From contig JALGVJ010000009.1 of the NCBI GenBank assembly GCA_029838195.1, positions 29,126 to 93,125 on the forward strand: a stretch of 64,000 bases of DNA. The letters are read 5' to 3'. Every line of letters starts with the position of its first letter. Position 1 is the stretch's first letter. Position numbers and translations under genes: made by a program. The stretch comes from Promethearchaeota archaeon (GTDB lineage Archaea > Asgardarchaeota > Lokiarchaeia > Sigyniarchaeales > SOKP01). This document shows, in pieces, positions 1,190-54,529 of the stretch. The notes below the pieces were generated by a model that saw nothing but the letters and a program-made list of their open reading frames with translations, had not been told where the DNA came from and ran no database searches.

Positions 1190-3322
1190 ATGGAAATTAA
1201 AAATTATGTGTTATCTAATGAATACTGGAAATTAGAAATTCACGAAAAGGAACCGGGAAAATTTATATATAAACTATGCGATTGCGTCCACGATGTTATT
1301 TATTCAGACCAAGATTACCATTATAGTCTCATGACTTCAAAAAAAAAGGGCATGCGATATCAATATTTAGATTATTTTGAAAAAGAAAAAGGTGCAAGAC
1401 ATTTAGAAAATAGAACCGTTCGCCTCGTAGGGGGAACCCAATTAATTATAGAAGGATATTTTAGCAACACTAAAATCAAAATCACTCACGTTTTCACCCT
1501 TGAAAAAGGAGATAAATGGTTAAAGGAAAGCATTACTCTTTTGAATGAAGGAGAAAAAAAAGTGCGGTTCAGCTTAATTAATTTGGGTTTTGAAAAAATG
1601 TTATTCAAGCAACGAGAAGGGTGGCAAGATCATTTAGATGAATATACCTTAACTGCAATTCCTTCTCGTCGCTTTTATGGATATGGTGAAGATAGAAGAA
1701 AAGAGTTTTTTAGCGCCAATGACCTCTTGTTTAATGAATGGGTGGTAAAAGAAGCAAGAATGCCGGGTTTTTGTGCTGAAGGATGGGCATGGGGAAATGA
1801 TAAAGGAGGCTTGTTGACGTGTAAATATAATGTTAATGAAATTGAATTCTCTCGATTTAGTAATTTTAGAAGGAATTTGCCCGGAAGGGGTGTTGAAAAT
1901 GTATCCATTATTTTTGGAGGTGCTTCTCTCTATAATGGTGACCCAGAAAGGGCAACTGAATTAAATCCTAAAGAATCGTACGCATTTGGAATATCAAAAT
2001 ACGCCGCATATGAAGGAGATTTTAAAGAGGCGTATTATCTATATAGAAGCCACTTGGAACAAAACGGACATCGCTTTAAAAAAGATTATAATCCTCCTGT
2101 CCATTGGAATGAACTCTATAATTTAGGATGGGAAGCTGAAAAAACAGGATTTTTTGTAAAAGGCGAAAAATTCGAAAAATATACTCTCGAACAATTGTAT
2201 CAAGAAGCAAAATTAGCAAGAGAAGTAGGTGCGGAGGCATTATATTTAGACCCGGGTTGGGATACATATTTAGGCTCCGAAATCTGGAATGAAGAAAGAT
2301 TTGGCCCCTTGAGTGAATTTTCTCGGACCATTCATGAAAAATATGGTTTAAAATTGGCCTTGCATTTAATGATGAATTTCGGGAGCGACGACGAGGAGGA
2401 CTATTTTTATCTCAAATCACCTAAAGGAGTAAGAGTTGTCGCAGATCCTTACATCAATCTATATTGTGTTTGTGCGAATGAACAATGGGTAAAAGAAAAA
2501 ACCCGAAGATTACTAGAACTTGCAAGAAATGAAATTGACTTCTTCATGTTTGATTTTACTGATTTCTCCTCCTTCATGATCGATAATATTGGATGCTGTG
2601 ATAAAACCCACGGTCATGAGGTTCCGATGCACAGGCAATCGCACGCAGAAGGCATCTTTAAAGTAATTCAAAACGTAAAAAAACATTTCCCACAAATACT
2701 TATAGAAGCTCATGGTAGAGGTGTAAATCATCCCTTATATTATCAACACGGACTTCCTTATAGCTTTGATGAAAACTGGGGTTTTGAATGCATGTGGAAC
2801 CCGCTACAAGATTTACTTTCTCATAAGGCATTTCAATTATATGAATATAACCTGGCTTATTCTATTCCTTTATATTTACACATCAATGAAAATAGCGACA
2901 ATGAAGAAATGTTGCAATTTTGGTGGTATGCTTCAGTGGTTCGTCATTTAGGTGTTGGTGGGTTAAAAGAACCAACAAGTAGAAAATTCATTGCCCTTAA
3001 AAATGCCATGATTTTATATAAAAAAATAAAACGAATTCTCACGCAAGGCACGTTTTACGGAATTGATCCCACTGCCCATTTTCACTTATCTCCAAACAAA
3101 AAACAAGCCATCACGATTGCGGTTAATTTAACCAGTAGAGCCATTTTAAAAAAGATAATTTTAAATCCAACACCCCTCGAACTTGATTTCCATTCCATGA
3201 CAATTAAAGATGGAACAAATAATCTCATCGAGGAAATTATCATTACTCCGAAATTAAAGGCTATAAATGAGTTCCTTTTAGAGATACATCCATTATCTCC
3301 TCGAATTATTATTTTTAATTAA
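1190..3322 (+). CDS. Putative glycoside hydrolase (TIM-barrel, alpha-galactosidase/GH36-like)
   Basis: 710-aa ORF. LYLDPGWDT...FGPL...GLKLALHL resembles the DDGW catalytic-barrel region of clan GH-D enzymes. It sits beside sugar symporters. Confidence 0.4.
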   Translation: MEIKNYVLSNEYWKLEIHEKEPGKFIYKLCDCVHDVIYSDQDYHYSLMTSKKKGMRYQYLDYFEKEKGARHLENRTVRLVGGTQLIIEGYFSNTKIKITHVFTLEKGDKWLKESITLLNEGEKKVRFSLINLGFEKMLFKQREGWQDHLDEYTLTAIPSRRFYGYGEDRRKEFFSANDLLFNEWVVKEARMPGFCAEGWAWGNDKGGLLTCKYNVNEIEFSRFSNFRRNLPGRGVENVSIIFGGASLYNGDPERATELNPKESYAFGISKYAAYEGDFKEAYYLYRSHLEQNGHRFKKDYNPPVHWNELYNLGWEAEKTGFFVKGEKFEKYTLEQLYQEAKLAREVGAEALYLDPGWDTYLGSEIWNEERFGPLSEFSRTIHEKYGLKLALHLMMNFGSDDEEDYFYLKSPKGVRVVADPYINLYCVCANEQWVKEKTRRLLELARNEIDFFMFDFTDFSSFMIDNIGCCDKTHGHEVPMHRQSHAEGIFKVIQNVKKHFPQILIEAHGRGVNHPLYYQHGLPYSFDENWGFECMWNPLQDLLSHKAFQLYEYNLAYSIPLYLHINENSDNEEMLQFWWYASVVRHLGVGGLKEPTSRKFIALKNAMILYKKIKRILTQGTFYGIDPTAHFHLSPNKKQAITIAVNLTSRAILKKIILNPTPLELDFHSMTIKDGTNNLIEEIIITPKLKAINEFLLEIHPLSPRIIIFN

Positions 3323-6207: not shown

Positions 6208-6753
6208 ATGAAAACCAGTCCAACTATCAAATGGAAGTTCAAGGTGGTCATCTGTGGCCCGGGGGCTGTAGGAAAAACCAGTATCATTCAGCGATTTGTC
6301 CATAATAGCTTCTCAATTAGTTATAAAATCACTATTGGGGTCGATTTTTTAACTAAAGATGTAGAATATAAAGATGGGGAAGCTGCTCGTCTCACGATTT
6401 GGGATATTGGCGGACAAGAACGCTATAATTTTCTCCGAGAAAGCTTTTTTGAAAAATCCGATGGTGCATTATTAGTTTTTGATCTCACGAGAGAAAAAAC
6501 ATTCAAAGAAATTAAAAATTGGCTTGAGCAACTGAGGAAATATACTTTTGATGCCATCCCTTTCGTACTTGTCGGAAATAAATCAGATCTTTTAACGGAT
6601 TTAGGCGTGGTTTTAGATAATGACGAAATAAAAAGTTTTGCTAAAAAAGAAAAGGCTTTTTATATAGAAACTTCAGCGAAAAAAAATCAAAATATTGAAT
6701 TGGCCTTTTTAGAATTAACTAAAGCAATTTTAAAATCGAAATCTTCCCGATGA
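6208..6753 (+). CDS. Rab/Ras-like small GTPase
   Basis: G1 GPGAVGKTS, G2 region ITIGVDF, G3 WDIGGQE, G4 GNKSDL and G5 ETSAKK are all present in the canonical order. Confidence 0.85.
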   Translation: MKTSPTIKWKFKVVICGPGAVGKTSIIQRFVHNSFSISYKITIGVDFLTKDVEYKDGEAARLTIWDIGGQERYNFLRESFFEKSDGALLVFDLTREKTFKEIKNWLEQLRKYTFDAIPFVLVGNKSDLLTDLGVVLDNDEIKSFAKKEKAFYIETSAKKNQNIELAFLELTKAILKSKSSR

Positions 6754-20685: not shown

Positions 20686-21099
20686 TTTATATAAACTCCT
20701 AATATTACTTGAATAATAAATAAGTGAATCAAATATATATGTATTAAGGTGAAAGATGAAACTTATGTTCTTATAGAATTTTCATGAATCAAGGAGAAAT
20801 TGCAAATGAATCGAAAAGATTTATATTCACCAGAGGAGTATATAAAAATATAAATGTAGCTTGCTCCTTTTTGAAAGAGAGCCTGATGCTTTCATTATTG
20901 AGAAAAAAATAATTTATTGAACATGCTTGTTTTAAAAATTAAAAATGAAAAAAATCGTAAATCCTTAATTAATTCCTTGCATTTGATCTAATTACTTATA
21001 CTTATTAATATAAGAATTAATCATATAAATATCAAACAATTTATTACATTATACACTACATTTAATCAAAAATAAAACGAAACTAAAATCGTGATAAAC

Positions 21100-23043
21100 A
21101 TGAGTAAAGCAAAAGAAATTCCAATTCCAGAAGAGGTCAAGGGGTATTCACAGCTACGATTGGACGTAGATTTAACGAACGAAAAAATTACCAAATCGCA
21201 GATCTCGAAGGAGTTTCTTCGTGATTGGATTGGTGGATACGGTTTTGGAGCAAAAATTCTCTGGGACGAATTAGAACCGGGAGTTGATCCGTTAGGCCCT
21301 GAAAACGTATTCGTATATGCACATGGCCCCTTTCCTACGACTCTCTTACCGACCAGCTCAAAATACGGAGTATTTGCTAAGTCTCCTTTAACCGGTTTTT
21401 TTGGCATGGCGATATCTTCAGGAAGCGTGGCAGCTCAAGCGAGGCGCGCTGGAGTTAACTTGATTGTATTTAAGGGCAAGGCTCCTGAACCCGTCTACAT
21501 GGTGGTGGATGATGATGACTATTACTTAGTTCCTTGTGAAAAGACGTTGTGGGGCAAGGGTTGCTGGGAAACGGAAGAAATTCTAAGACACGAATTCCAA
21601 GATCAACGATTAGCAGTAATGTCAATCGGTCCAGCAGGAGAAAGAATGAGTAGAATTGCATGCATCACGAATGATAGAAACCGACAAGCGGGTCGCACGG
21701 GCATGGGCGCTGTCATGGGCTCTAAAAACTTAAAAGCGATATGTTTTAGAGGAACTAAAGGTGTTCAAGTAGCTCATCCCGCCGAATTTTACAAATTGGC
21801 GAAGAAATTAATTAAAGTGGCGAATGGTCCTGCTACTGCTAAATATCGTGATCAAGGTACTCCTGCGGGTTTGACGAGTTATAATAAATTAGGGATGATG
21901 CCCATTTTCAATCATCGAGAAGGTACGTGGGAAAAGATCACGGAAGGACCCATTACAGGCGAGATTTTGAATGAAGAATGGGTGGTGAAAAAAGTAGCCT
22001 GTTCTCAATGTAGCATAGCATGTGATCATCTTGCCCGCGTTCCTAAGAGCCATCCTGATTACCCTAATTTAATAGCAAGCGTGGATATTGAGTTAGTCTA
22101 TGGCTTTGGTACGGCTTGTGGAAATTGGGATTGGCCGACTATCTTCAAGTGCATTACATTATGCGATAATTTAGGCATTGATGCGATTTCCGGAGGAGTC
22201 ACCGCTGCCATGGCGTGTGATTTGTATGAAGAAGGCATTATAACAAAAGAGGATTTAGGATATGAGTTGCCCTTTGGTTCCACGCACAATCTCGTACGGT
22301 TCACGGAGGAGATGATCATGGGCAAGGGTTTTGCGGGTAAGATTTTTGGTGATGGAACGAAAATGGCGGGTGTTCGATTAGAAGAAATGGGCCGTAAAAA
22401 TGCAAGTTATCATGCCATGCAAATCAAGGGCTTAGAAATGCCCGCATTTGACATCCATGGCATGACATCTTTTGCAGTGGGAGAAAGTGTTGCAGTTAGA
22501 GGAGCGTGCCATTTGAGAAATGGTGCTTATGGACTGGATGCAAAAGGAACCTTTGATCGATTTTCCTATGATAAACCGCTTGAGAGAGGAAAAGCAATCA
22601 TGGATATTGAAAATATCTATGCTATTATTGATTCCTATATCATTTGTAAATTTACTCGTGGAATCTATGAAAACGATGCGGAGATGGCAAAAGTATATGA
22701 ATTGGTCACTGGCATTCCTGTCACGGACGAATTTATTATAAAAAGAGGAGCAGCAATTGTCAACCTTTCGAAATGCTTTAACATTCGAGAAGGATGGACG
22801 AGAGCCGATGATCATCCACCTCAACGATTCTTCAAGGAAGCTCACACGAAAGGACCGGCTAAAGGATTTACCCTGGATGAAAAAGGTTTTCAGACCCTTT
22901 TGAGCGGGTATTATGAAGCTCGCGGATGGGATCCGGAGACGGGCATTCCAAAGGAAGAAACTCTAAGAGATCTAGGATTAGATTTTGTAATTGGAAAATT
23001 AGAACCAAAAGCAGCAAAACCTAAAAAAGGAGGAAAGAAATAA
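21100..23043 (+). CDS. aor: Aldehyde:ferredoxin oxidoreductase (tungstopterin AOR family)
   Basis: About 647 aa with AOR_N and AOR_C patterns (GGYGFGAKILWDE, PLTG, GMGAVMGSKNLKA, CSQCSIAC). The ATG at 21100 (MSKAKEIP) is preferred to the GTG at 21091. Confidence 0.9.
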   Translation: MSKAKEIPIPEEVKGYSQLRLDVDLTNEKITKSQISKEFLRDWIGGYGFGAKILWDELEPGVDPLGPENVFVYAHGPFPTTLLPTSSKYGVFAKSPLTGFFGMAISSGSVAAQARRAGVNLIVFKGKAPEPVYMVVDDDDYYLVPCEKTLWGKGCWETEEILRHEFQDQRLAVMSIGPAGERMSRIACITNDRNRQAGRTGMGAVMGSKNLKAICFRGTKGVQVAHPAEFYKLAKKLIKVANGPATAKYRDQGTPAGLTSYNKLGMMPIFNHREGTWEKITEGPITGEILNEEWVVKKVACSQCSIACDHLARVPKSHPDYPNLIASVDIELVYGFGTACGNWDWPTIFKCITLCDNLGIDAISGGVTAAMACDLYEEGIITKEDLGYELPFGSTHNLVRFTEEMIMGKGFAGKIFGDGTKMAGVRLEEMGRKNASYHAMQIKGLEMPAFDIHGMTSFAVGESVAVRGACHLRNGAYGLDAKGTFDRFSYDKPLERGKAIMDIENIYAIIDSYIICKFTRGIYENDAEMAKVYELVTGIPVTDEFIIKRGAAIVNLSKCFNIREGWTRADDHPPQRFFKEAHTKGPAKGFTLDEKGFQTLLSGYYEARGWDPETGIPKEETLRDLGLDFVIGKLEPKAAKPKKGGKK

Positions 23044-23613
23044 ATGTCAGCTTCAACAAAAAAGTCCGTGGTAAAACGCAGGGGAGGAAAAATGCATCAA
23101 TTCATTTGCGTGGATGCCAATCTCTGCACGGGTTGCGAAACTTGCGAATCGGTATGCTCTTTTGTACACGATGGGGAATTTAATCCCATAAATACACGCA
23201 TTCATAGAGTTCGCATTGAACCCGTTTTGAACATAGCACTTGCTTGTCAAAAATGTGAAGATGCTCCCTGCGTTCGTTCTTGTCCTGAAAAGGCACTGGA
23301 GAAAGATGAAGAAACGGGATCCATTATAGTAATAGAAGACAAGTGCAATGGTTGTGCCTTTTGCGTGAGAGCTTGCGATTTTGGCGTGATTTCTTTACAC
23401 ATAGATTCCCAAAAAGCGTTGGTATGCGATCTCTGTGAAAACATGAAAGAAGAATTCATCGACCCCGAAAAAGGGGTGCCGGAGCCTCAATGCATTGAAG
23501 TATGTCCAAAAGAAGCCATTTCATTAAAGAACGTGGAGCAAATTGGAGAAGAAACCCGTTTCGATGCTGTAAAAAGACTGTTTGCTGACATTATTGCGGA
23601 TTATGAAAGCTAA
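23044..23613 (+). CDS. 4Fe-4S dicluster ferredoxin (CooF-like AOR partner)
   Basis: It has CTGCETCESVC, CQKCEDAPCVRSCP, CNGCAFCVRAC and CDLC...CIEVCP motifs. The ATG directly abuts the aor stop (TAAATG). Confidence 0.8.
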   Translation: MSASTKKSVVKRRGGKMHQFICVDANLCTGCETCESVCSFVHDGEFNPINTRIHRVRIEPVLNIALACQKCEDAPCVRSCPEKALEKDEETGSIIVIEDKCNGCAFCVRACDFGVISLHIDSQKALVCDLCENMKEEFIDPEKGVPEPQCIEVCPKEAISLKNVEQIGEETRFDAVKRLFADIIADYES

Positions 23614-24211: not shown

Positions 24212-24739
24212 TCAACTCCGGTTTTTCTTAAACACCTTTCTCAGCCAACTTAAAAAACCCGTTCTGTTGGTTTGAAACGTGTTTAGAAATTTTAACGTTT
24301 TCGTATTATTCGGACACCCTTCACATTCCTCGTGCCCCCCGCAGTTCTTCCGTGCCAAATTCATATCGAGCAAGACTTGCTTGAAATCATCAAATTGCGA
24401 AACCTCCCCATCAAACGCCTCCAAGGTTGAATCATATTTGCTCGTAAAAATCCCCGCAATCCTTCGAATTTTAAAATTAATATCACTCGGATCTTCCCCG
24501 CCATCCGAAATGAACACGTGAAGCAAATCAGGCCTCCTCTCATCCCTGTAAAAATAAAAATTATACTCCTCAAGATTAATCGATTTAATCGTAGACCCGG
24601 TTAACTCCTTCGAAAAATTTTGTAAAGCACATAAAAACCCTGTCAATAACTCCTCATTCGACCCTAATGAATGACACTCACCAAAATGTAATTTTATCAA
24701 GGGAACCCCATCCTTGATGATGAATATATTCCGAATCAT
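24212..24739 (-). CDS. Hypothetical protein with a longin-like N-terminal domain and a C-terminal Cys cluster
   Basis: 175 aa. By eye the pattern is beta-beta (MIRNIFIIKDGVPLIKLHF), helix (ELLTGFLCALQNFSKEL), beta strands (IKSINLEEYNFYFYR, LLHVFISD), helix (INFKIRRIAGIFTSKY). The tail carries CGGHEECEGCP. The fold assignment is not verified. Confidence 0.3.
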   Translation of the reverse strand: MIRNIFIIKDGVPLIKLHFGECHSLGSNEELLTGFLCALQNFSKELTGSTIKSINLEEYNFYFYRDERRPDLLHVFISDGGEDPSDINFKIRRIAGIFTSKYDSTLEAFDGEVSQFDDFKQVLLDMNLARKNCGGHEECEGCPNNTKTLKFLNTFQTNRTGFLSWLRKVFKKNRS

Positions 24740-25346
24740 GACTTAAGCATTTTAAAATTCATTCTATAAGAAAATTCATATCCCTTAATTTTTAAATCTT
24801 ATTTTCATGAAATATAATCCACTCTCATCCGTTCCTCCCATCCCTTGCGCACACCACCTCTCTCACCAAAAAACCAAGTAAAGATTCCCTCTCTGTAATA
24901 CACTCATCCAAATTTTATTCTATACACGTCTTCCCTATCGATGATTTCTATTTATTAAAATTCTTTCTAACCCTAATAAACCATATCTTTTACCAGCCCC
25001 CATTATCCTTGTAAATACGACACTCGCTTCCCTCCACGTGATTTCTAAATTAACCCCCCCAATTTATCACCCGCCTAATTTCAAATCTTAGGTCTATCCT
25101 TTCTTCCCTCATCTCCCCCCTCCAGCCAACACCCTCTCAGCATGACATTATCTTCCTCTTCAAACCATTGGTGTTTCCCAATTTGACAAAAAAATTAAGA
25201 AAAATTAAATATCCTAAAATAAAATCCTATAAGAATTAATATTAAATTAAATTGTTAATTGTTTAAATTATATAATACGTTTTAATAACACATGAATTAA
25301 AGATCCTATATATTAGGAGGTATCAAGATAAAAAAGGTGAGAAAAT

Positions 25347-27308
25347 TTGTCTGATAATCAGACCACGGGTAAACCTACGGTGGGAGTTTTCGTATGCCGC
25401 TGAGGGATTAACATCGCTGGGATCTTAGATGTTCCACGCATGGTTATAGAATTAAACAAGTTAGAAGGCGTGAAAGCGTTCGAATATATTAGCATGTGTA
25501 CGGAGGGAGGCGCTACCTATATTAAGGAGCAGATAGCTGAGAGCAAGCTCGAGCGCATCGTCGTGGCGGCTTGCACGCCCCGCACCCATCAACCAGTCTT
25601 TCATGCTATTTTAAAGGAAGCTGGTTTGCCACCTCGATATTTGGAGTTCGTTAACATACGAGAGCATTGTAGTTTTGTCCATCAAGCACTTGAAATTCGA
25701 GAGAAGGCATTTAATAAAGCCTTGGAATTAATTAAAGCGGGGATTGCTCGAGCCCGATTTTTAGAGGATGTTCCCACGAAGACGGTCAAGGTGAATCAAG
25801 CAGCTTTAGTGGTTGGGGGAGGCATTGCGGGCTTATCGGCTGCCATTGACTTGGGGGATGCAGGATTTAAGGTGTATTTGGTGGAGAAGAATACGACGAT
25901 CGGTGGGAGAATGTCTCAGCTCGACCGCACCTTTCCGACCGATGATTGTAGCATATGAATATTAGGCCCGAAGATGCTCGAGGCGAATCGCCATCCCAAC
26001 ATAGAAATCTTAAGCTATTCAGAAGTCATTGAAGTAAATGGATATATTGGAAATTTTAATGTTAAGATAAAGCGTAAATCTCGCTACGTGGATGAGACAA
26101 AATGCACAGGTTGTGGAAGCTGTACGGATGCATGTCCCATTTACGTGCCCAATTACTTTGATGAGTATCTTTCGGCCCGTAAAGTGATTGATATTGCTTT
26201 TGCTCAAGCAGTACCAGCGGTTAGAAACATTGAGCGTCATTCGTGCGTGGAATGCTTCGCATGTGTGGATGCTTGTGAGCAATCTGCAATAGATTTTAGC
26301 ATTCAAGACAAGATCATGGAGGTAGAAGTTGGAACCATCATTATAGCAACAGGTTGGGACTTATACGAAGGAGAAGATTATGGATATGGCATTTATGATA
26401 ACGTCATTAATCAAATTCAATTGGAGCGAATCTTGGCACCTAATGGACCCACATTGGGCCATTTAAAGCGTCCTTCTGATGGAAAAAGGCCGAAGCGTAT
26501 CTTGTTTATCAATTGCGTGGGCTCACGAGATATCAATAAAAACCCTTGGTGCAGCGTGGTGTGTTGTAATTTATCCTTGAAGAATTCCAAGCTCATCAAG
26601 TCAGAGCATCCCGATTCGGAAATCGTGTGTGTTTACATAGACATGCGTTGTGCCGGAAAAGATTATGAGGAGTATTACCGGCGATCTCGCGATGCGGGTA
26701 TTATTTTCGTAAAGGGTATCGTGGGTAAAATTGAGGAAGATCCAGAAACAAAGAACTTGCGCGTTTGGTTTGAGCCGGTTGGAGCAGATACGGTGATAAG
26801 CAAGGAATTTGACATGGTGGTACTATCCTCATCATCGTTGCCCTCGAAGGGAACGAGGGAAATAGCAGAAGTACTTAACATGGAGCGGAGTCCTGACGGA
26901 TTTTTAAAAGAATATCATGCACGATTAGACCCGATAAGTACTAAAGTATATGGCATTTATATTTGCGGCTCATCTCAAGGACAGAAGGAAATCGATAAAG
27001 CAGTGAGTCAAGCAAAGGGAGCCGCCTCTAGTGCGGCAATTCCCATGAAAAAGGGAGAGTTTACCATTGAATTAATTCGAGCTACACCGTCAGATGAGCG
27101 ATGTGCAAAATGCTATAAATGCATAGAGATCTGTCCATTTAGTGCAATCTCTGTGAATGAAACTGGAAATCTAGTAGTTGATTTAATTGCGTGCCGAGGA
27201 TGCGGAACTTGCGCAGCTATTTGTCCTTCGAAAGCGATTGATTTAATTTATTATCGAGATCTACAATACATGAATTTGATAGATGAATTACTTCCCATGG
27301 AAGATTAA
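25347..27308 (+). CDS. hdrA: Heterodisulfide reductase subunit A (HdrA), selenocysteine form with two in-frame UGA codons (25401-25403, 25956-25958)
   Basis: TTG at 25347 lies 7 nt after AGGTGA. One frame gives GVFVCR-U-GINIAG..VVAACTPRTH..NIREHCSFVH..GGGIAGL..PTDDCSI-U-ILGPKM.. plus ferredoxin CxxCxxCxxxCP motifs, 653 codons in all. The track's ORFs 25440..25958 and 25974..27308 are in the same frame. Confidence 0.85.
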
Positions 27309-27321
27309 AGAGGTTAAAAAA

Positions 27322-27768
27322 ATGTCGGAAATGGATGATATTAAGATTTTGGCTTTCCTCTGTTGGAAATGAGGATATGGGTCGGCAGACATGGCAGGAA
27401 CCATTCGTGCGCAATATCCCACGTCGATTCGGCCTGTTTTAGTTCCATGTACGGGTAGGGTAGGAGCAGACGATGTCATGCGGGCGTTTGGAAGAGGAGC
27501 AGATGGCGTGATGATTGTAGGATGATATCCTCATGAATGTGACTATGAAATCGGGAATTTTTTCGCTTATCGTCAGGTGGAATATTTAAAAGAAGTAATG
27601 AGGGCTGTTGGACTTAGTGAAGAGAGGCTCATGATGGGCTTCTGTTCGGCAGCAGAAGGAGAGAAGTTTCAGAGAACGGCCACGGAATTTGACAAGCGAA
27701 TTAGAGAATTAGGGCCGAGTCCGTTGAGAACAAAAAGCGGCACCTCCAAAAAAAAAGCAAAAGTATAA
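27322..27768 (+). CDS. vhuD: MvhD/VhuD-type [2Fe-2S] subunit, selenocysteine form with two in-frame UGA codons (27370-27372, 27523-27525)
   Basis: ATG at 27322 gives MSEMDDIKILAFLCWK-U-GYGSADMAG...LVPCTGRV...GADGVMIVG-U-YPHECDYEIGNFFAYRQ..., the MvhD signature with U at two Cys positions. The track sees only the last 63 aa (27577..27768). Confidence 0.85.
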
Positions 27769-27773
27769 AAAAC

Positions 27774-27832
27774 GTGTTAGCTGATGATGCTGGGTTGGAA
27801 ATATTAGAACCTAGTGGAGGAAATGGTTGCAC
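27774..27832 (+). promoter_or_regulatory. SECIS-like hairpin in the vhuD 3' UTR (ATGA...A-rich loop...GA kink-turn-type core)
   Basis: Hand fold: CTGGGTT (27790-96) pairs with AACCTAG (27808-14), extended by two G-U pairs. The apical loop is the 11-nt GGAAATATTAG. AUGA (27784-87) faces GAGG (27817-20), which allows tandem G.A/A.G pairs. An imperfect lower helix pairs 27774-81 with 27825-32. Confidence 0.55.
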
Positions 27833-27998
27833 CATTAACACGCCTTTAATCATTAAAAAAATATAAAGATTTAAGACACGTATTAGAAAAAATAAAGAGA
27901 GAACAACTTGAAGTTTTAAAACAAATTAAATAGAAATTTTAAAAAAAAATAACTTGTTCCATTTAATAATTAAAAATAACTATTCAAGTGGGAAATAC

Positions 27999-29138
27999 AT
28001 GGATGCAATTGCTGAATATCTGATCAAGATAAAGGATTTTCAAGAATTATTATCTACTCTTTTAGAGCAGAAAGTAGTAGATAAGGTACTTGGCGCAAAA
28101 TTGAAGGTTGATAAAAAATCGGGGGGAATTAACCGTTTTACGGTCGTACCAGAAGCGGTTTCTGATCCCAATGGAGTGTCAGGTTTTCCCTTGACGGCGC
28201 TTTTAGCCTATGGATATGCCCGAACGGATTCTGCGGCAAAGTACGTGCACAAATCACTTCAAGGAGCGAAGGAAGAAAAAATAGGTATTATTGCGAGACC
28301 CTGTGATACGCGGGCGCTCATTGAATTGGCTAAATTAAAACAAGTAAATTTGGAAAACATTTTCATCATTGCATTTGAAGACAGGGGCACGGTTCCGAAG
28401 GCTTCCAGAGAGATCAAGAAAATAAAGGATGTGGATCCTTCGAAAATCGTAAAAGAGAAAGTAGAAGATGGTGGCCTCCTCGTTCAGTTAGAGGATGGTA
28501 CTACTAAACTGTTGAATCTCACGATTGCGGAGAATTGCTTGCGATGTTATCGGAAAAAACCGGTCATGGCAGATTTATCCATTAGCGATTTGGGAATTCC
28601 TATAGAATCCGATGAAATTATCTTAAAAGTATATTCTGAAAAAGGAAATGATGTGTTAGAAAAATCGGGAATACAGAAAAATCCAATTTCGGATCAAGTG
28701 AAAAATGCTCACGAAACTAAATATAAAGAAATCATTGAAAAAGCACGGGAAAAGCGAGCAAAAGATTTGGAGGAATGGGCAAATCTTCCTCAAGAAAAAA
28801 AGATCGAACTCTTGAAAAAATGTACTGCTTGCGGAACATGTATTCGTGGATGTCCTGTTTGTTATTGCGTGGATTGCATATTAATGAAGAAAAGAAAAGA
28901 AAAGTCAATCGATACTGTGAGTTATCAATTAACCCGCATAGCACATGATGCAGATCGATGCGTGGAATGTGGAAATTGTGATAATAATTGTCCAATGAAC
29001 ATTCCTCTTTCCTTATACTTTCAATCGTTAAATGATGCCTTCAAGGAAAAGTTTGACTATGAACCCGGCATGTCTATAGAAGATATTCCTTTTCGATCCG
29101 GGATGGCAATAAAGAAAATGGAATTAGAAAAAGCATGA
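27999..29138 (+). CDS. Fe-S oxidoreductase subunit (FrhB/AsrA-like, 4Fe-4S dicluster with a CPxCxC motif)
   Basis: It has IGIIARPCDTRAL, CTACGTCIRGCPVCYCVDC and CVECGNCDNNCPMNIP. The ATG at 27999 (MDAIAEY) is preferred to the TTG at 27954. Confidence 0.5.
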   Translation: MDAIAEYLIKIKDFQELLSTLLEQKVVDKVLGAKLKVDKKSGGINRFTVVPEAVSDPNGVSGFPLTALLAYGYARTDSAAKYVHKSLQGAKEEKIGIIARPCDTRALIELAKLKQVNLENIFIIAFEDRGTVPKASREIKKIKDVDPSKIVKEKVEDGGLLVQLEDGTTKLLNLTIAENCLRCYRKKPVMADLSISDLGIPIESDEIILKVYSEKGNDVLEKSGIQKNPISDQVKNAHETKYKEIIEKAREKRAKDLEEWANLPQEKKIELLKKCTACGTCIRGCPVCYCVDCILMKKRKEKSIDTVSYQLTRIAHDADRCVECGNCDNNCPMNIPLSLYFQSLNDAFKEKFDYEPGMSIEDIPFRSGMAIKKMELEKA

Positions 29139-29229: not shown

Positions 29230-30003
29230 ATGAGTCTTCCCTCAAAAAAAGCAATTCAAGTGGATGAAAATATCACGGATTATCAATATAAGATGCTAAA
29301 CTTAGAAATGGTGCTCCGATACGACGATACCAAATGCCTAGAATGTGGATTTTGCCACAGAGTCTGTCCCGTGACCACGCAAATAGTAGACGGAAAAGAA
29401 GTACCTTTGAAAAGAACTGCGATCGGCACGCCCGAGCAAATGAATATCAAATCTGATAAGAAGACCGTCGTGGATTTAGACAAATGCATTTGGTGTGGCT
29501 CTTGCACGTGGATCTGCCCAGGGTATACGCTAGAATTATTCATTGATGGACAAAAAAAGTTATTATTGGTGGAGAATGGATCTCTTCCCGAATTTGAGGA
29601 AGAAATACGAGAATTAGAAGATGGCAGGAAAGTTAGGAAAGTGGTGGAAGGGAGTATTAAGATCACGTGCAATGAAACAGATGAAAAGATAATTGAAAAT
29701 TTTGTCGACGAGTGTGCCGTGGGTGCCATGAGTAGAAAAGAAAAAGACATTGAAGTAGATATAAACAAGTGTATTTTATGTTTTAAATGCACAGAAGCTT
29801 CAAAGAATTATGAAAACATCAGCGTGGAAGTCCATAGGGATCGCTTTAAACAGGTAAAGGGCGAACCGGGATCCGTATGGAATGGTATCATGTTGCGGGT
29901 ATTAGGAAAAGAAGGTAAGATTAAGGGCATTATTAGTCGCACTCAAAATAAACTTGCGGATGCTGTAATGCGGCTATTAGGAAGAGAATTTATTGAAGAG
30001 TAA
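29230..30003 (+). CDS. Polyferredoxin-like 4Fe-4S protein
   Basis: It has CLECGFCHRVCP, CIWCGSCTWICP and CILCFKCTE cluster motifs. Confidence 0.6.
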   Translation: MSLPSKKAIQVDENITDYQYKMLNLEMVLRYDDTKCLECGFCHRVCPVTTQIVDGKEVPLKRTAIGTPEQMNIKSDKKTVVDLDKCIWCGSCTWICPGYTLELFIDGQKKLLLVENGSLPEFEEEIRELEDGRKVRKVVEGSIKITCNETDEKIIENFVDECAVGAMSRKEKDIEVDINKCILCFKCTEASKNYENISVEVHRDRFKQVKGEPGSVWNGIMLRVLGKEGKIKGIISRTQNKLADAVMRLLGREFIEE

Positions 30004-35237: not shown

Positions 35238-35323
35238 AAAATTTGATTAATTTTACTATATTATCCAAATATTTTGGACAAAGCGAGTTAATTATAAATA
35301 TGTGTATGAATATGTGTAAATTG

Positions 35324-35563
35324 ATGACTTCTAAAAATATTAGTATACGGGAAGATGTCTATAATAAATTAATAAAAATTAAGAGAGAAAAGGAAAGTTT
35401 TTCGGATTTATTTTTGCGATTATTAAAAACACAAAAAATGAATCTTAAAAAATCATTTGGGGCTTGGCAGCTTACTGAAAAGGAAAAACAGGAAATTTGG
35501 AATGATATTACGAATCGGCCTGGAAGAAAATGGAATAAATCAAAATTAGATCAAGTAAAATGA
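35324..35563 (+). CDS. vapB: VapB-type antitoxin (COG1753/PF02697-like)
   Basis: MTSKNISIREDVYNKLIKIKREKESFSDLFLRLL fits the archaeal VapB pattern. There is a 4-nt ATGA overlap with the PIN gene. The ATG at 35324 is preferred to the TTG at 35243. Confidence 0.65.
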   Translation: MTSKNISIREDVYNKLIKIKREKESFSDLFLRLLKTQKMNLKKSFGAWQLTEKEKQEIWNDITNRPGRKWNKSKLDQVK

Positions 35564-35967
35564 TTGTTCTTGATACAACAGCTTGTATTGATTATTTAAA
35601 CGGTAATGAGAATATCTGGAATCTAATTTCAAAAATCGAAGGTCTTTTTTATATTACGTCCATTACGATATATGAAATTAATATTGGATTAGAAAGAACA
35701 AAAATAAAAATATCAGAGAAAAGATATAATGAACTTAATAAGAGATGGCTTGAATTTATTAGTGGAATAGAAGTTCTTCCCTTAAATATTAAAGAAGCCT
35801 TGGAGGCTGCAAGAATATATAATAGATTAGAATCTAAAGGAAAAATCATTGATGATAACGATATTCTTATAATGGGAATAATGCTATCAAACGGTTTTAG
35901 AAAAATTATTACAAGAAATGTCAAGCATTTTAAATTAATTAAGGAAATTGAAGTTTTAACCTATTAA
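35560..35967 (+). CDS. vapC: PIN-domain ribonuclease toxin VapC
   Basis: 135 aa with acidic PIN residues in MIVLDTTACIDYL, ..ITIYEI.., ..DDNDILI.., and ..ITRNVKHF. Confidence 0.85.
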   Translation: MIVLDTTACIDYLNGNENIWNLISKIEGLFYITSITIYEINIGLERTKIKISEKRYNELNKRWLEFISGIEVLPLNIKEALEAARIYNRLESKGKIIDDNDILIMGIMLSNGFRKIITRNVKHFKLIKEIEVLTY

Positions 35968-46992: not shown

Positions 46993-48288
46993 TCAAGAGC
47001 GATTTTTTTTCTGCCATTCAAAATAGCTTTCAGGGAGGCTTGAAATATAAGCGGGAGTAATTTCATCTAAAGCATAATCTCCTTCATCATATACCGCCTT
47101 TCTTAATTTCCAGATATCCCCTTCTTTCGTCCATATATGAGGATTCCTAAACTTGTCAACGATCCTCCAAAATTCATCAGCCGTGATCTGGGTGTACTCT
47201 AAAAATTCTTTGAACCACCTTTTTGGAAATTCTCCATCATACCGCTTCACTAAAGATACTCCCTCTTCCCGCGTGATATGACCATCACGAATTTCATGAG
47301 CAGCATCAGAAGTACATCGCCCAATTCCAAATTTTATAAAGGCCATGTAAAAATGAAAACCATCTGTTTGATCATCCAAGCTGGCATATTTAGAATAGGT
47401 CCCCTCCGAGCGCCCTTCTGGGTTAGCTTCAAATCCCGTGTGCTCCGCAGCAAGATAATAATTTTCTTGGGGTATCCATTTGTGATAATAAGAAAACCAG
47501 TGAAATTGAATCCCTAAATCCTTCATCTCTTTAATATCCGGAGGCCTATAAAACCTCAAATCACTTTCATCAAAATCGTTTTCAGTAAAATAATCCGTCT
47601 CTTCCAATCCATATTTTATTAAATCATCAACCGTAATGCCCTTGAAATATTGCTCCGCCCACAGCTCAAAAGGCATCCCCCGAAGATTATATACGCGAGG
47701 ATCCCCTGAATATTCAGCTTCTCCATTTTCTCCAAAAAAAACTAATTTTACATCAAAAGCTTTTGCAATGTGAAAAGCATAGCAGACCTGGCCATAAGTG
47801 AAAGGCTGCCAAGCATCGCCGACAGCTTCCAATGAAATTCTAGACAATTTTCGATGGAGATGGCCATTGGGCCATGCCATTAAATTATTAAAACCCCCTA
47901 CTTTAATGAAATTACGAAAATTTTTATAACCGATTGGCGTGTATTCGAAGGGAGCCCACGTAATCGTGAGAGGATGCATGTTAAATTTATATTTTAAAGT
48001 CCATGCCACGCGGGCCGAGTCTTTTCCCCCGCTGACGGGAATGATCACGTCATAGCGACCATCATTTCTGCGATACTCATCGCAGAGATTTGCTAGCATT
48101 TCTTCTCTTTCTTTCCAATCGATTTCATGATTTTTGATGTCGGTGAACTTGCAAGCCCCGCAAATTCCATCTTTAGTCCAATGAATTCTAGGTCTTTGAT
48201 TGGAAACCACGCATCTACGACAGAATTTTATTTCCTTGGGTAATTTAGGAATTTGTCTATCGAGTATTTTTTGGCTAACCATATTCAA
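46993..48288 (-). CDS. N-acetyl sugar amidotransferase (WbuX/WbpG/PseA-type, PP-loop)
   Basis: It has an N-terminal Zn-ribbon CRRCVVSNQRP...GICGAC and the PP-loop IIPVSGGKDS. It is adjacent to HisH/HisF paralogues, as in known acetamidino-sugar loci. Confidence 0.8.
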   Translation of the reverse strand: MNMVSQKILDRQIPKLPKEIKFCRRCVVSNQRPRIHWTKDGICGACKFTDIKNHEIDWKEREEMLANLCDEYRRNDGRYDVIIPVSGGKDSARVAWTLKYKFNMHPLTITWAPFEYTPIGYKNFRNFIKVGGFNNLMAWPNGHLHRKLSRISLEAVGDAWQPFTYGQVCYAFHIAKAFDVKLVFFGENGEAEYSGDPRVYNLRGMPFELWAEQYFKGITVDDLIKYGLEETDYFTENDFDESDLRFYRPPDIKEMKDLGIQFHWFSYYHKWIPQENYYLAAEHTGFEANPEGRSEGTYSKYASLDDQTDGFHFYMAFIKFGIGRCTSDAAHEIRDGHITREEGVSLVKRYDGEFPKRWFKEFLEYTQITADEFWRIVDKFRNPHIWTKEGDIWKLRKAVYDEGDYALDEITPAYISSLPESYFEWQKKNRS

Positions 48289-49858: not shown

Positions 49859-50884
49859 TTAATCGACTTTATAATATTTAAGCAAACCTTCTAAAATATC
49901 CGTGGCATCTGCGACTATACAGTAATCTGCAACCTTAAAGAGAGCACAATTTGGATCCTTATTAATGGCTACAATAGTTTTTGAGCGGGTAATCCCTACG
50001 ACGTGTTGAATTGCGCCTGAAATGCCAAATGCGATGTACAAATCGCAATTGATGGATTCTCCGCTGATTCCGATTTGAAGGTGTTCGGACATCCAACCTT
50101 CAATTATCGGGCGTCTCGTTCCTCCTACTTTCCCATTCGTAAATCGTGCTAATTCAAATAATTTTTCGAAGTTTTCCTTGGTAGATAAACCATGTCCACC
50201 TCCAATTACAAATCGAGCGTCTGACAAGGTGGCGGTAGGCTTGTCTTTTCTGGTGGGTGTTCCGATGATTTTAATCTTAATGTTTCGATCATCAAAAGTA
50301 TACTCTTTTTTAATAACTTCTATGGAGGATTTTCTCGACTTTTTCTTTATAAATGTTCCTCCGGTTATCGTGCACATTTGAGGCCTGGCATGAGGGCAAA
50401 TAATTTTCACGTGAATATTTCCACCATAGGCGGGTTTATCTGTGAGAAGTAAATTCTTTCCATGCTCATCGCTTAATTCTAAATCTAATACATCACTCAC
50501 GAGACCCGTTCTGCAGCGATAAGCAATTCTTGCTGCCAAGGAGTTACCGGCTTCGGTACTTGGAAACAAGAACACGGAAGGCTTGTATTCTTTAATCAAA
50601 TCGTATACGAGTGATGTAAAAATACGTTCATGGTAATGTTTTAAATTAGGATGACTAATATAGATGATTTTATCCACCCCATAGTCCTTGATCGTTTCCA
50701 AATATTGTTCGGCTTCAAGCGCTAACACGATGGCAACGAGTTGTTGATCTAATTTATCTGCGATTTCTCTTGCCTTGCTTAAAATTTCTAAAGCGGTGTC
50801 ATGAACTTCCTCGTGATCTTTAATTTCTGTAAAGACCCATACGTCCTTGTACTCGGTCAAGTCGTGAACTTGTTGAGCGCTCAT
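49859..50884 (-). CDS. etfA: Electron transfer flavoprotein alpha subunit
   Basis: The C-terminal FAD block is VIGGGHGL...LYIAFGISGAIQHVVG. I prefer the ATG at 50884 (MSAQQVHDL), 1 nt after the etfB stop, to the track's 50923 start, which overlaps etfB. Confidence 0.85.
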   Translation of the reverse strand: MSAQQVHDLTEYKDVWVFTEIKDHEEVHDTALEILSKAREIADKLDQQLVAIVLALEAEQYLETIKDYGVDKIIYISHPNLKHYHERIFTSLVYDLIKEYKPSVFLFPSTEAGNSLAARIAYRCRTGLVSDVLDLELSDEHGKNLLLTDKPAYGGNIHVKIICPHARPQMCTITGGTFIKKKSRKSSIEVIKKEYTFDDRNIKIKIIGTPTRKDKPTATLSDARFVIGGGHGLSTKENFEKLFELARFTNGKVGGTRRPIIEGWMSEHLQIGISGESINCDLYIAFGISGAIQHVVGITRSKTIVAINKDPNCALFKVADYCIVADATDILEGLLKYYKVD

Positions 50885-50885
50885 G

Positions 50886-51698
50886 CTATTTATTTCCTCC
50901 CGTCCAGATTCTCTCAATGCCATGTTCTCTCATGATAGAAATTAATTTATATATTTTTTCATTCACGTTCCCTTGGATGAATTCGTGTTTTCTTTCATGC
51001 TTTATTTCAAAGGTTTTTACCACTTTTGTAGGAGATTGATTGCATCCATCCAAGTGAGCAGGAAAATTCAAATATTTATGATCAATAATTTTAATTTTTT
51101 TTCTAAAAGCTCTTTTAATTCTTAATAAGGAGACATGTCTGGGAACATTAAAATGCCGAGGAACCCTTATTAAAACGGGCAATTCTACCATGATATTTTG
51201 CGATTCATGACCAAAATTACGATGACAATAAAAAATTCCACCCTCAATAGACATGGAAAAGATGTCCGTGATCAAGGGAATGTCAAGGGCTTCCGATAAT
51301 TGATAAGGAACTTGTCCCGTGCTTGAATCGGCCGTTTTGCTTCCCGTTATGATGATATCATAATGTCTAATGGAATTAAATACTTCCTTTAAGACAAGAG
51401 TGGTTTGCAGGGTATCTGAATATGCAAATCGAGGATCGGATATTAAAATAGCGCCATCCACGCCCATTGCTAAAGCTTCTCGTAATGCTAATTCCGCTTG
51501 AGGCGGGCCCATGGTAACAGCAGTAACATATCCTCCATATTGCTCTTTTAGGCTAATACCTAATTCTAATCCGTTTAAATCATCAGGATTTATAATGGTT
51601 TCAATTCCTTCTCTAATAATGGTACCTGTTTTAGGATTGATTTTAATCTCACGAATTTCCGGGACTTGTTTAATCAACACGTAAATTTCTAACCCCAT
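50886..51698 (-). CDS. etfB: Electron transfer flavoprotein beta subunit
   Basis: It has IYVLIKQVP...INPDDLNGLE...VTMGPPQA...AILISD. Confidence 0.85.
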   Translation of the reverse strand: MGLEIYVLIKQVPEIREIKINPKTGTIIREGIETIINPDDLNGLELGISLKEQYGGYVTAVTMGPPQAELALREALAMGVDGAILISDPRFAYSDTLQTTLVLKEVFNSIRHYDIIITGSKTADSSTGQVPYQLSEALDIPLITDIFSMSIEGGIFYCHRNFGHESQNIMVELPVLIRVPRHFNVPRHVSLLRIKRAFRKKIKIIDHKYLNFPAHLDGCNQSPTKVVKTFEIKHERKHEFIQGNVNEKIYKLISIMREHGIERIWTGGNK

Positions 51699-51711
51699 TT
51701 TTATTTTCCTC

Positions 51712-52863
51712 TCATTTTCCCAAAATTTTTCTTGAAATAATTAATTTCATGATTTCATTGGTCCCTTCATATAATTCCGTGACTTTTGAATCCCGATAAT
51801 ACCGCTCTAAAGGCAGATCTTTCATGTATCCATACCCACCGTGAATTTGTATGGCTTCTTGAGAAATCTCTCTTGCAATCTTACTGGCAAAATACTTACA
51901 TGTAGCCGAGGCTTTTGAAATATCTCTCTTCTGATCTTTTAAAAACGCAGCATTATAAACCAGTAATCGGGCGGCATCTATTTTTGCTGACATTTCAGCC
52001 AATTTGAAAGAAATGCCTTGGAAACTTGAAATGGGCCTCCCAAATTGAATGCGGCCCTTGGAATATTCAATGGAATGTTCGAAAGCTGCTTGAGCAATTC
52101 CTAGCGCTTGGGCGGCAATTCCAATTCTTCCCACGTTTAACGCATCCATTGCGATTTTAAAACCATCGGAAAGATTCCCCAAAACATTTTCTATTGGAAT
52201 TTCCACGTCATGAAAGTAGAGACTGGTGGTGATGTTTCCCCGCATGCCCAACTTATCTTCTGGAGGTCCAATCTCATAGCCTTTCATGTCCCTTTCCACG
52301 ATGAATGCTCCTATTCCCTTTTGTCCATCATCCGTTAAAAATTTTGCTCCAATTAACATTACAGAGGCGATCCCGCCATTAGTTACGAAAATTTTCGAGC
52401 CATTCAAGATAAAATGATCCCCTTCTTGAACGGCCGTGGTTTCAATAGCCGCCGCATCCGAACCTGCATTTGGTTCCGTCCAAGAAAACCCCGCTATTTT
52501 TCTCCCTCGGGCTAAATCCGTCAAAAATCTTGCTTTTTGTTCTTCCGTACCCCATTTATAAATTGGGTAGGCCCCTACAGAATTATGAACCGTTAATGTT
52601 AACGCCGTGGAAGCACACACGCGAGCGATTTCTTCAATTATAAGGGTATAAGAAATGGAATCCAAACCAGCACCGCCATATTCCTCTGGAAGCTGGATAC
52701 CCCAGGCATTTATCTCCGCTAATTTTTCGAAAATTTTTTGGCTAAAAGTTGCTTCTTTATCAAAAATAGGTGCGACTGGAGCTAGAATATCGTTTGCGAA
52801 CTTTCTAACATTCCTTCGTATTAGTTTTTGTTGATCGGTTAGCTCAAAATTCAAGATTATCAC
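51712..52863 (-). CDS. Acyl-CoA dehydrogenase (butyryl-CoA dehydrogenase-like)
   Basis: 383 aa with TEPNAGSDAA, a C-terminal IHGGYGYM..LPLERYYRDSKVTELYEGTNEI, and the catalytic Glu context. Confidence 0.9.
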   Translation of the reverse strand: MIILNFELTDQQKLIRRNVRKFANDILAPVAPIFDKEATFSQKIFEKLAEINAWGIQLPEEYGGAGLDSISYTLIIEEIARVCASTALTLTVHNSVGAYPIYKWGTEEQKARFLTDLARGRKIAGFSWTEPNAGSDAAAIETTAVQEGDHFILNGSKIFVTNGGIASVMLIGAKFLTDDGQKGIGAFIVERDMKGYEIGPPEDKLGMRGNITTSLYFHDVEIPIENVLGNLSDGFKIAMDALNVGRIGIAAQALGIAQAAFEHSIEYSKGRIQFGRPISSFQGISFKLAEMSAKIDAARLLVYNAAFLKDQKRDISKASATCKYFASKIAREISQEAIQIHGGYGYMKDLPLERYYRDSKVTELYEGTNEIMKLIISRKILGK

Positions 52864-54037: not shown

Positions 54038-54529
54038 GTGGGAAAAACAACCTTAATTAATCGATACATTACGGGTTCATTTAGAGATTCCTATAAAATG
54101 ACAATAGGAGTAGACTTCATGTCCAAGATCTTAAATATTAAAGGAATAGAAGTATATTTACAGATATGGGATTTTGCCGGAGAAGACCGGTTTCGCTTTC
54201 TAATTCCGGGCTATATAGAAGGAGCAAGCGGAGGAATTTTCATGTATGACATCACGCGGCTTAAAAGTTTAATAAATCTTGAAGAGTGGTATTCCATACT
54301 TATAAAGTCATGGAAAGAATATGATTTATTTCCCATTGTTTTAGTAGGAGGAAAGTCAGATCTCAAGAGAAATAGGTCGGTAAACATGAAACAAGGAGAG
54401 GAGTTTTGTCGGAATCATAAAATGATAAAATTCATTGAATGCTCCTCTAAAACAGGTGAAAATGTTGCGGAGATCTTTGATGTATTAGCTCGTGAATTGG
54501 TGGAACGCATGTTAAAAAGTAATAAATGA
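54038..54529 (+). CDS. Rab/Ras-like small GTPase with an unresolved 5' end (the called GTG lies inside the P-loop)
   Basis: G1 remainder VGKTT, G2 MTIGVDF, G3 WDFAGED, G4 GGKSDL and G5 CSSKTG are present. The upstream in-frame codons read ..RVLFKICVFGDGG, so the true N-terminus is upstream (see findings). My hand count put the GTG at 54037, so coordinates are +/-1 nt. Confidence 0.7.
   Translation: MGKTTLINRYITGSFRDSYKMTIGVDFMSKILNIKGIEVYLQIWDFAGEDRFRFLIPGYIEGASGGIFMYDITRLKSLINLEEWYSILIKSWKEYDLFPIVLVGGKSDLKRNRSVNMKQGEEFCRNHKMIKFIECSSKTGENVAEIFDVLARELVERMLKSNK

Follow-up and report, generated by a model that had tools for sequence, protein, structure and literature searches.

An hdrA–vhuD gene pair of a Promethearchaeota archaeon with four in-frame UGA codons predicted to be decoded as selenocysteine through one shared downstream lokiSECIS

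The closest described relatives of the locus reported here are the tandem HdrA–VhuD gene pairs of Lokiarchaeota, in which Mariotti et al. (2016; PMC4989117) found HdrA proteins with multiple selenocysteine (Sec) residues—up to four, at five possible positions, the canonical one always among them—alongside a VhuD protein with two. In those pairs a single Sec insertion sequence (SECIS) of the kind named ‘lokiSECIS’, found only downstream of vhuD, serves up to six UGA codons over ~2 kb and UGA is never used as the hdrA stop; the element itself has an AUGA motif, then a stem of 9 bp around an 11-nt loop with AG at its end, and finally a GA. Huang et al. (2024; PMC11227280) subsequently extended the system to 227 Sec-utilizing Asgard genomes, observing that neighbouring hdrA and frhD genes share one eSECIS-like structure, and that the Sec trait is present in 85.9% of Lokiarchaeia/Helarchaeales genomes. 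In heterodisulfide-reductase-type complexes, electron bifurcation is the task of HdrA, a subunit that contains flavin and Fe-S clusters, with VhuD/MvhD serving as its [2Fe-2S] electron-input adaptor. Here, we describe a further instance of the system reported in 2016 and catalogued in 2024 in dozens of Asgard genomes, encoded within a 64,000-nucleotide stretch of contig JALGVJ010000009.1 from a Promethearchaeota archaeon (hereafter ‘the window’): an hdrA–vhuD pair that we hold, with high confidence, to be a bicistronic selenoprotein operon, its four in-frame UGA codons (UGA-1 to UGA-4; Table 1) being decoded as Sec via one lokiSECIS located downstream of both genes.

The window shares with the Loki pairs the order hdrA then vhuD, on the same strand and with a very short spacer, the presence of one SECIS downstream of vhuD, a multi-Sec HdrA that includes the canonical site at ~200, a two-Sec VhuD, and an hdrA stop codon other than UGA. 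It differs in that the apical loop of its SECIS starts with GGAAA rather than AAAAA, in having just two of the five described HdrA Sec positions, and in being a separate metagenome contig, identical to no catalogued sequence. With the 2024 catalogue it has in common the Asgard HdrA and FrhD/MvhD/VhuD families, eSECIS-like type I elements and the same Sec-flanking motifs: VFVCRXGINIAG occurs 44 times and DDCSIXILGPKM 85 times among the HdrA entries of the supplementary sequences, and CWKXGYGSADMAG 32 times among those for VhuD; an exact-string look-up of the supplementary files did not return the window's own HdrA or VhuD. One difference is that the catalogue gives the G[U/G]AAA-type loop start chiefly for Thor/Sif lineages, while the window's nearest relatives bear the label Promethearchaeota.

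Working from the 5' end of the pair downwards, a Shine-Dalgarno-like AGGTGA (25335–25340, forward strand) is seen 6 nt ahead of the TTG start of hdrA, from which a single frame runs to the TAA stop, but only if both UGA-1 and UGA-2 are decoded. The 13-nt spacer that follows contains a GAGGT ribosome-binding site for vhuD (27310–27314, forward strand), the frame of which likewise reaches its own TAA only with UGA-3 and UGA-4 decoded. Neither translation nor alignment to structures in the Protein Data Bank (PDB) reveals a frameshift in either gene; the coordinates, the four in-frame TGAs, the AGGTGA, the 13-nt gap, the unchanged frame and the four peptide contexts set out in an initial annotation of this DNA all match the sequence exactly. 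In 43 related loci a start-type codon aligns with that of hdrA (TTG in 30, ATG in 10 and GTG in three); public gene calls for hdrA omit its first 30 codons.

For similarity searching, each Sec of the conceptual proteins was replaced by Cys. Residues 9–649 of HdrA then align in one piece to residues 3–650 of PDB 9sfi_A (E 1.2e-210) and the protein aligns over its full length to 5odc_A (E 4.6e-201), with 8rvu_a and 7bkb_A also matching at E<1e-170. Pfam places NAD_binding_8/FAD_oxidored at residues 153–194, with the VVGGGIAG Rossmann motif for flavin adenine dinucleotide (FAD), and there are two 2x[4Fe-4S] ferredoxin domains, one inserted and one C-terminal (Fer4 dicluster matches at 247–312 and 583–635, respectively). 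VhuD matches Pfam PF02662 (FlpD) at E 8.7e-42 over all 123 positions of the profile (1–123), its residues 8–136 align to 9sfi_K (E 2.4e-36), and six MvhD/VhuD chains in the PDB match at E<1e-31; chance cannot account for similarity of this order. On these alignments the gene products are HdrA and MvhD/VhuD, the identities originally proposed, with the Pfam, PDB and NCBIfam searches in agreement. The best NCBIfam model for HdrA is HdrA2, at 742 bits under a curated cut-off of 1100; the HdrA model itself scores 599 bits against a cut-off of 1400, both falling short of the equivalog threshold, and VhuD scores 146 bits against the 215 of NF045873. Because the HdrA scores fall below their cut-offs, and because hdrBC are not found in the window, the name ‘HdrA-type subunit’ is justified whilst ‘CoB-CoM heterodisulfide reductase’ is not. 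The HdrA2 model (NF040770) describes an HdrA–MvhD fusion from Methanosarcina; hdrA covers its positions 2–642 and vhuD positions 646–774 so that, spanning the model end to end, the pair represents a split version of the fused protein and differs from it in consisting of two separate Sec-containing genes with no hdrB2C2 nearby.

The four UGA codons fall in alignment columns occupied by Cys or Sec in every case, with predicted peptides reading VCR-U-GINIAGILDVPR and TFPTDDCSI-U-ILGPK in HdrA, and ILAFLCWK-U-GYGSADMAGTIR and GADGVMIVG-U-YPHECDYEIGNFFAYR in VhuD. The UGA-1 column is Cys in both 9sfi_A (VCYCG) and 5odc_A (VCHCG); the UGA-2 column is Sec (deposited as X) in Methanococcus maripaludis 9sfi_A (DDCAM-X-ILAPKM) and Cys in 5odc_A (NDCSI-C-ILAPKM); and the UGA-3 and UGA-4 columns are Sec (X) in 9sfi_K and Cys in 9sw2_D, such that the Cys-type structures (5odc, 9sw2) carry Cys in all four. 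Sec at UGA-1, UGA-3 and UGA-4 replaces a conserved Cys of paralogous MvhD-like folds, and Sec204 corresponds to Sec197/Cys197 of methanogen HdrA, a residue near both the bifurcating FAD and the N-terminal [4Fe-4S] cluster, the conserved C-x-x-C/U motif beside the FAD being present. An alignment of this kind had been put forward at the outset as the check on a Sec reading, and it comes out in favour. The M. maripaludis proteins (HdrA with Sec197, VhuD with two Sec; PDB 9sfi, Nature 2026, PMC13518236) are full-length orthologues, sharing Sec at the UGA-2, UGA-3 and UGA-4 columns as well as the adjacency of hdrA and vhuD. In contrast to the window, Methanococcales have Cys in the UGA-1 column of HdrA and a GAA_A-type archaeal SECIS for each gene, with no shared element of the kink-turn type; the M. 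maripaludis complex also includes HdrBC, VhuAGU and Fwd (PMC13518236), none of which is encoded in the window.

A scan with one genome per species yielded 80 related loci, nearly all labelled Promethearchaeota, with HdrA proteins 72–86% identical to that of the window at the amino acid level (column counts given below include the window where it aligned). In each of the 80, hdrA is followed by vhuD after a spacer of 8–20 nt, and TGA is found in the UGA-1 column of 78/78 sequences, in the UGA-2 column of 81/81, and in the UGA-3 and UGA-4 columns of 80/80 apiece. These counts bear directly on the simplest alternative, namely that hdrA and vhuD are pseudogenes or decaying fragments produced by nonsense mutations. 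Such a view finds its support in the list of open reading frames (ORFs) and in the public gene calls, both of which return fragments only, as the initial annotation had anticipated; those of the Joint Genome Institute (JGI; metagenome 3300033150, Ga0366835_1000346, 82.5 kb) split hdrA into products of 172 and 444 amino acids, and vhuD into products of 44 and 63. Against this, the same four TGAs persist in all 78–81 sequences at the level of protein identity given above, there are no frameshifts, a dedicated and covarying SECIS follows the gene pair (see below), and residues are conserved to the same extent 5' and 3' of the TGAs: in HdrA the majority-residue fraction amounts to 0.875 for the stretch separating the two UGAs and to 0.872 for the part beyond the second. 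Equal conservation on both sides of a UGA indicates purifying selection on the whole frame, and the pseudogene explanation, to which we give next to no chance, is effectively refuted by the conservation data.

No pattern is commoner amongst the 78 complete HdrA sequences than that of the window, in which Sec is confined to positions 19 and 204 (61/78). Extra HdrA Sec residues in relatives are found at column 51 (nine sequences), at column 76 (seven), and, in a single sequence, at both 76 and 253 (L075). At each of these columns the window has Cys: C51 (SMCTEGG), C76 (VAACTPR) and C253, the last being the first Cys of the CxxCxxCxxxC motif of the inserted ferredoxin, with positions 19, 51 and 76 all lying in the N-terminal cluster-binding domain.

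If UGA instead coded for an amino acid such as Trp or Gly throughout the genome, no SECIS would be needed at all; to judge from the title of PMC9723677, reports exist of stop-codon recoding in certain Asgard lineages. Within the window, however, TGA serves as the ordinary stop of 13 of the 34 ORFs with Pfam support, and no other long ORF in the 64 kb requires an internal TGA; genome-wide reassignment is therefore excluded. The four columns, moreover, are Cys or Sec in homologues and never Trp or Gly. Stop codon usage across the 80 loci also fits a recoding that depends on position: hdrA ends in TAA (50) or TAG (30) and never in TGA, whereas vhuD, the stop of which lies close to the SECIS, ends in TGA in 8/80. 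This is the expected outcome if any UGA sufficiently far upstream on the messenger RNA (mRNA) is recoded, the vhuD stop being too near the SECIS to be affected. Taken with the Cys/Sec columns, this makes reassignment vanishingly improbable as an explanation and favours Sec insertion directed by a SECIS. One further pair of long ORFs in the window is joined in frame by a TGA (57294–57292, minus strand), encoding GNAT (57292–57855) and metallo-beta-lactamase (MBL)-fold (56263–57249) proteins; it is the only such pair and we rejected it as a selenoprotein, judging the TGA a chance occurrence because the two belong to unrelated domain families, have their own starts (ATG 57249 for the MBL-fold protein), and are accompanied by a SECIS-like match (57239–57206) with one mismatch and a loop that is not A-rich.

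Immediately after vhuD, the window contains a complete SECIS of the Asgard, eukaryote-like, type I class. Its helix I pairs 27773–27779 with 27836–27842, a 5' internal loop (27780–27783) leading into the core, which comprises the AUGA (27784–27787), a 9-bp helix II (27788–27796 with 27808–27816) and the GA (27817–27818). Written out, the core reads ATGA TGCTGGGTT GGAAATATTAG AACCTAGTG GA, pairing with 0 mismatches and three G-U pairs around an 11-nt apical loop with a terminal AG (GGAAAUAUUAG; 27797–27807), a layout that agrees with the published lokiSECIS. This is the sole zero-mismatch match to an AUGA–9bp–loop–9bp–GA pattern in the 64 kb, where 0.16 would be expected per window; the same strict pattern is seen 12–21 nt after vhuD in 70 of the related loci, with the remaining ten departing from it by a UUGA core or a one-nucleotide bulge. 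When the 79 other loci were used to build a covariance model, with the window excluded, it matched the window once, at 27763–27856 with 78.1 bits (E 3.5e-18), well ahead of the runner-up in the 64 kb at 17.8 bits, and it found exactly one element in each related locus (61–106 bits). In the alignment of 80 elements, 93% of cells are paired and 13 pairs show double changes, a result matched by 0/500 shuffles; helix II by itself is 95% paired across the 80 loci, with compensatory changes in eight of its nine pairs, and the lower helix I and a small 3' hairpin show conservation too. The minimum free energy (MFE) fold of the window sequence gives the same three-way structure.

The third arm of that structure is a 3' mini-hairpin, AUGG-N5-CCAU; it has the same G, G, G, C, C and T in 80/80 loci, with pairing in its stem at 99.7%. 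Placed after the GA and before helix I's 3' strand, it makes the lokiSECIS a three-way junction. Viewed more broadly, a near-invariant G-A-N-AUGG-NN-GC-N-CCAU stretch (27819–27842; A1 columns 63–93, L001–L080) folds as a mini-hairpin of 4–5 bp. The hairpin goes unmentioned in the texts, figures aside, of Mariotti et al. (2016; PMC4989117) and Huang et al. (2024; PMC11227280), and it may be what enables the element to act over long distances on several UGAs in different cistrons. An analogous G/C-rich mini-hairpin of different sequence (CCC..GGG) can be seen in metagenome SECIS elements of PrxL (L115) and VhuU (L127, L162); the pattern scan from which these derive was run without a pairing constraint and returned mostly chance matches, a paired stem being present in 6/120 loci.

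Table 1. Coordinates of the recoded genes, their UGA codons, the SECIS and neighbouring Fe-S protein genes, numbered from the first nucleotide of the window
Feature	Coordinates	Strand	Remarks
hdrA	25347–27308	+	653 codons; TTG start; Sec codons 19 and 204; TAA 27306–27308
UGA-1, HdrA Sec19	25401–25403	+	GVFVCR-U-GINIAG; 2383 nt upstream of SECIS core
UGA-2, HdrA Sec204	25956–25958	+	PTDDCSI-U-ILGPKM; canonical C-x-x-U site; 1828 nt upstream of SECIS core
vhuD (mvhD-type)	27322–27768	+	148 codons; ATG start; Sec codons 17 and 68; TAA 27766–27768
UGA-3, VhuD Sec17	27370–27372	+	AFLCWK-U-GYGSADMAG; 414 nt upstream of SECIS core
UGA-4, VhuD Sec68	27523–27525	+	MIVG-U-YPHECDY; 261 nt upstream of SECIS core
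Complete SECIS (lokiSECIS, Asgard eukaryote-like type I)	27773–27842	+	Covariance model, MFE fold, 80-element alignment
SECIS core hairpin	27784–27818	+	Base-pair-aware scan; starts 15 nt after vhuD stop
3' mini-hairpin AUGG-N5-CCAU	27823–27835	+	Between SECIS GA and helix I 3' strand
FrhB-like Fe-S protein gene	27999–29138	+	Pfam FrhB_FdhB_C and Fer4; not a selenoprotein gene
Polyferredoxin-like 4Fe-4S protein gene	29230–30003	+	Pfam Fer4 families; present in 24 related loci

With the element in place we can return to a question raised in the initial annotation, and posed already by Mariotti et al. (2016; PMC4989117): how might one SECIS serve UGAs up to 2.4 kb away? That annotation had rightly credited those authors with multi-Sec versions of these proteins, and with the principle as already described; what is added here is a SECIS located and validated, found to be the sole one present, and the finding that no conserved local RNA signal accompanies the UGAs. 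An arrangement of the opposite kind, in which the distant hdrA UGAs, or indeed each UGA, are served by a local RNA element in the coding sequence or spacer, with the 3' SECIS acting on vhuD only, is attractive in that distances as great as the 1.8 and 2.4 kb required here, with a cistron boundary in between, are unusual for an archaeal SECIS, and in that bacterial SECIS elements and eukaryotic selenocysteine redefinition elements (SREs) adjoin their UGA. Yet the covariance model, run with filters off, finds no second SECIS in the window, nor any extra element in the 80 loci; a generic eSECIS pattern does not recur at any fixed coding position (best bin ≤16/80 loci, versus 65/80 downstream of vhuD with the strict pattern); and synonymous-site variability is not reduced in the 12–25 codons that flank any of the four UGAs, its values of 0.72–0.82 being average for genes with means of 0.74–0.75. 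A search of Rfam gives no SECIS match either, in the whole window at the gathering threshold or in 25200–28100 at E≤10, an absence which is itself uninformative because the Rfam models do not cover the lokiSECIS. Mariotti et al. (2016; PMC4989117), who used RNAz, concluded likewise, and we consider local elements highly improbable.

The mechanism we favour thus has one SECIS serving UGAs at all four of the distances listed in Table 1. It would require hdrA and vhuD to be translated from a single mRNA, since the SECIS must act backwards across the hdrA stop and the vhuD start. The 3' kink-turn-type element would recruit the Sec-specific elongation factor (EFSec) with its Sec-tRNA, this complex then being passed on to ribosomes that have paused at one or other of the four UGAs; how the SECIS reaches the more distant codons is presumably as in eukaryotes. 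With the eukaryotic SECIS and selenoprotein P, the window shares a kink-turn-type AUGA...GA core, unpaired loop A's, a 3' location and the servicing of several UGAs at a distance (general knowledge and PMC4989117). It differs from them in having a shorter helix II (9 bp), in acting, on our model, across two cistrons of a polycistronic mRNA, in its additional 3' mini-hairpin, and in being missed by the Rfam SECIS models; Asgard archaea have no known homologue of SBP2 (Mariotti et al. 2016; PMC4989117).

Several points weigh against this mechanism. We infer Sec insertion at the four UGAs from sequence, and co-transcription of the two genes from their 13-nt spacing. Neither tRNA-Sec (ARAGORN) nor EFSec/SelB, PSTK, SepSecS or SPS (Pfam) is found within the 64-kb window, a search that covered ORFs of at least 110 amino acids plus some smaller ones and carries no implication for the genome as a whole; ARAGORN finds no tRNA gene of any kind in the window. 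Also lacking from the 64 kb are hdrB and hdrC (no CCG-domain HdrB, no HdrC), mvhA/G, vhuU and other hydrogenase genes. Lastly, the GGAAA at the start of the apical loop departs from the usual AAAAA, and the score of the element is among the lower ones in the family (78 vs 61–106 bits). As to the loop, the window retains the three A's that none of the 80 sequences lacks, and a G in place of A at the loop start is seen in other loci (GAAAA, GUAAA) and in Huang et al. (2024).

Sec decoding is also known to compete with termination, and four successive UGAs would multiply any inefficiency; accordingly one might picture the UGAs as partly or conditionally terminated or mis-decoded, through truncation or through insertion of Cys under selenium limitation, leaving the four-Sec proteins a minor product. 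For the sequence downstream to be as strictly conserved as it is, however, a useful fraction of ribosomes must read all of the UGAs, and the products of termination would be an 18-residue N-terminal peptide or a 203-residue HdrA fragment without most of its cofactor sites. We therefore see only a slim chance that readthrough to the full-length proteins is the lesser outcome, and retain decoding of all four codons as Sec.

What, then, might the Sec residues do? According to PMC9012536, which summarises the methanogen crystal structure, Cys197 (the counterpart of Sec204 in the window) is a ligand to the partner HdrA's N-terminal [4Fe-4S] cluster; this cluster, HA3 (A3), starts the low-potential branch as its first acceptor. 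In the cryo-EM structure from M. maripaludis, Sec197 has been modelled in a Cys-Sec pair between the N-terminal [4Fe-4S] cluster on one side and FAD on the other (PMC13518236). Sec19 of HdrA lies within the Cys motif of the N-terminal domain, and Sec17 and Sec68 of VhuD occupy paralogous positions of a [2Fe-2S] domain. When HdrA's N-terminal domain (25347–25750) is compared with VhuD (27322–27768) using hhalign, U19 pairs with U17, C51 with C43 and C76 with U68, in an alignment that is statistically weak (probability 4.6%, E 0.009); the comparison suggests that the Sec/Cys sites of the two are paralogous Fe-S ligand positions, to the extent that such a weak profile alignment allows. It is possible, though we think it rather unlikely, that the Sec residues are direct ligands of Fe-S clusters as opposed to classical redox-active selenols. 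As the Sec204 site, Sec19, and the additional 51 and 76 positions of relatives are all Cys positions tied to the N-terminal domain or its cluster, up to all four ligands of one HdrA cluster could then be Sec; were this so, nature would offer here a family of Fe-S clusters ligated by selenium, by which an electron-bifurcating enzyme is tuned.

As one more independent instance of a known and still unexplained phenomenon, the locus leaves the existing picture unchanged; the 80-genome comparison strengthens it, through the absolute conservation of the UGAs, the presence of exactly one SECIS per gene pair, and the lack of local signals at the UGAs. It also provides a clean worked example of a systematic annotation error: since gene callers split both hdrA and vhuD, HdrA/MvhD modules can be overlooked or wrongly counted when the metabolism of Asgard archaea is reconstructed.

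Turning to the surroundings of the pair, 66 of the 74 related loci that have enough flanking sequence encode an FrhB-like homologue (29–49% identity) downstream of vhuD and on its strand, as does the window, where the polyferredoxin-like gene follows (Table 1). Just upstream of hdrA, at 21091–23613, are a gene for an aldehyde:ferredoxin oxidoreductase (AFOR_N/AFOR_C) and a 4Fe-4S dicluster gene, found near hdrA–vhuD in ~27–29 of the 80 loci. An ORF located between this cluster and hdrA (24212–24739, 175 amino acids) is not conserved in related loci, and has no Pfam family; the same is true, with regard to Pfam, of ORFs 1190–3322 (710 amino acids) and 46993–48288 (431 amino acids).

Several of the 80 loci carry the labels Hod-, Hermod- or Odinarchaeota. 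Another (L050; DATKTW010000168.1) was deposited as ‘Candidatus Nanopelagicaceae bacterium’ (Actinomycetota) and shows a typical Asgard hdrA–vhuD–lokiSECIS arrangement, with an HdrA of 79% identity to that of the window and a SECIS scoring 101 bits; the contig was probably mis-binned. Ras-family small GTPases are a hallmark of Asgard archaea, and the window encodes two (6208–6753 and 54038–54529; Pfam Ras E 5e-49 and 1e-42), in agreement with the Asgard placement obtained from the related loci. Elsewhere in the window are a VapB-like antitoxin and PIN-domain toxin pair (35243–35967) and, on the minus strand at 49859–52863 and 57946–60504, a beta-oxidation-like set comprising acyl-CoA dehydrogenase, the alpha and beta subunits of electron-transfer flavoprotein, enoyl-CoA hydratase and 3-hydroxyacyl-CoA dehydrogenase.

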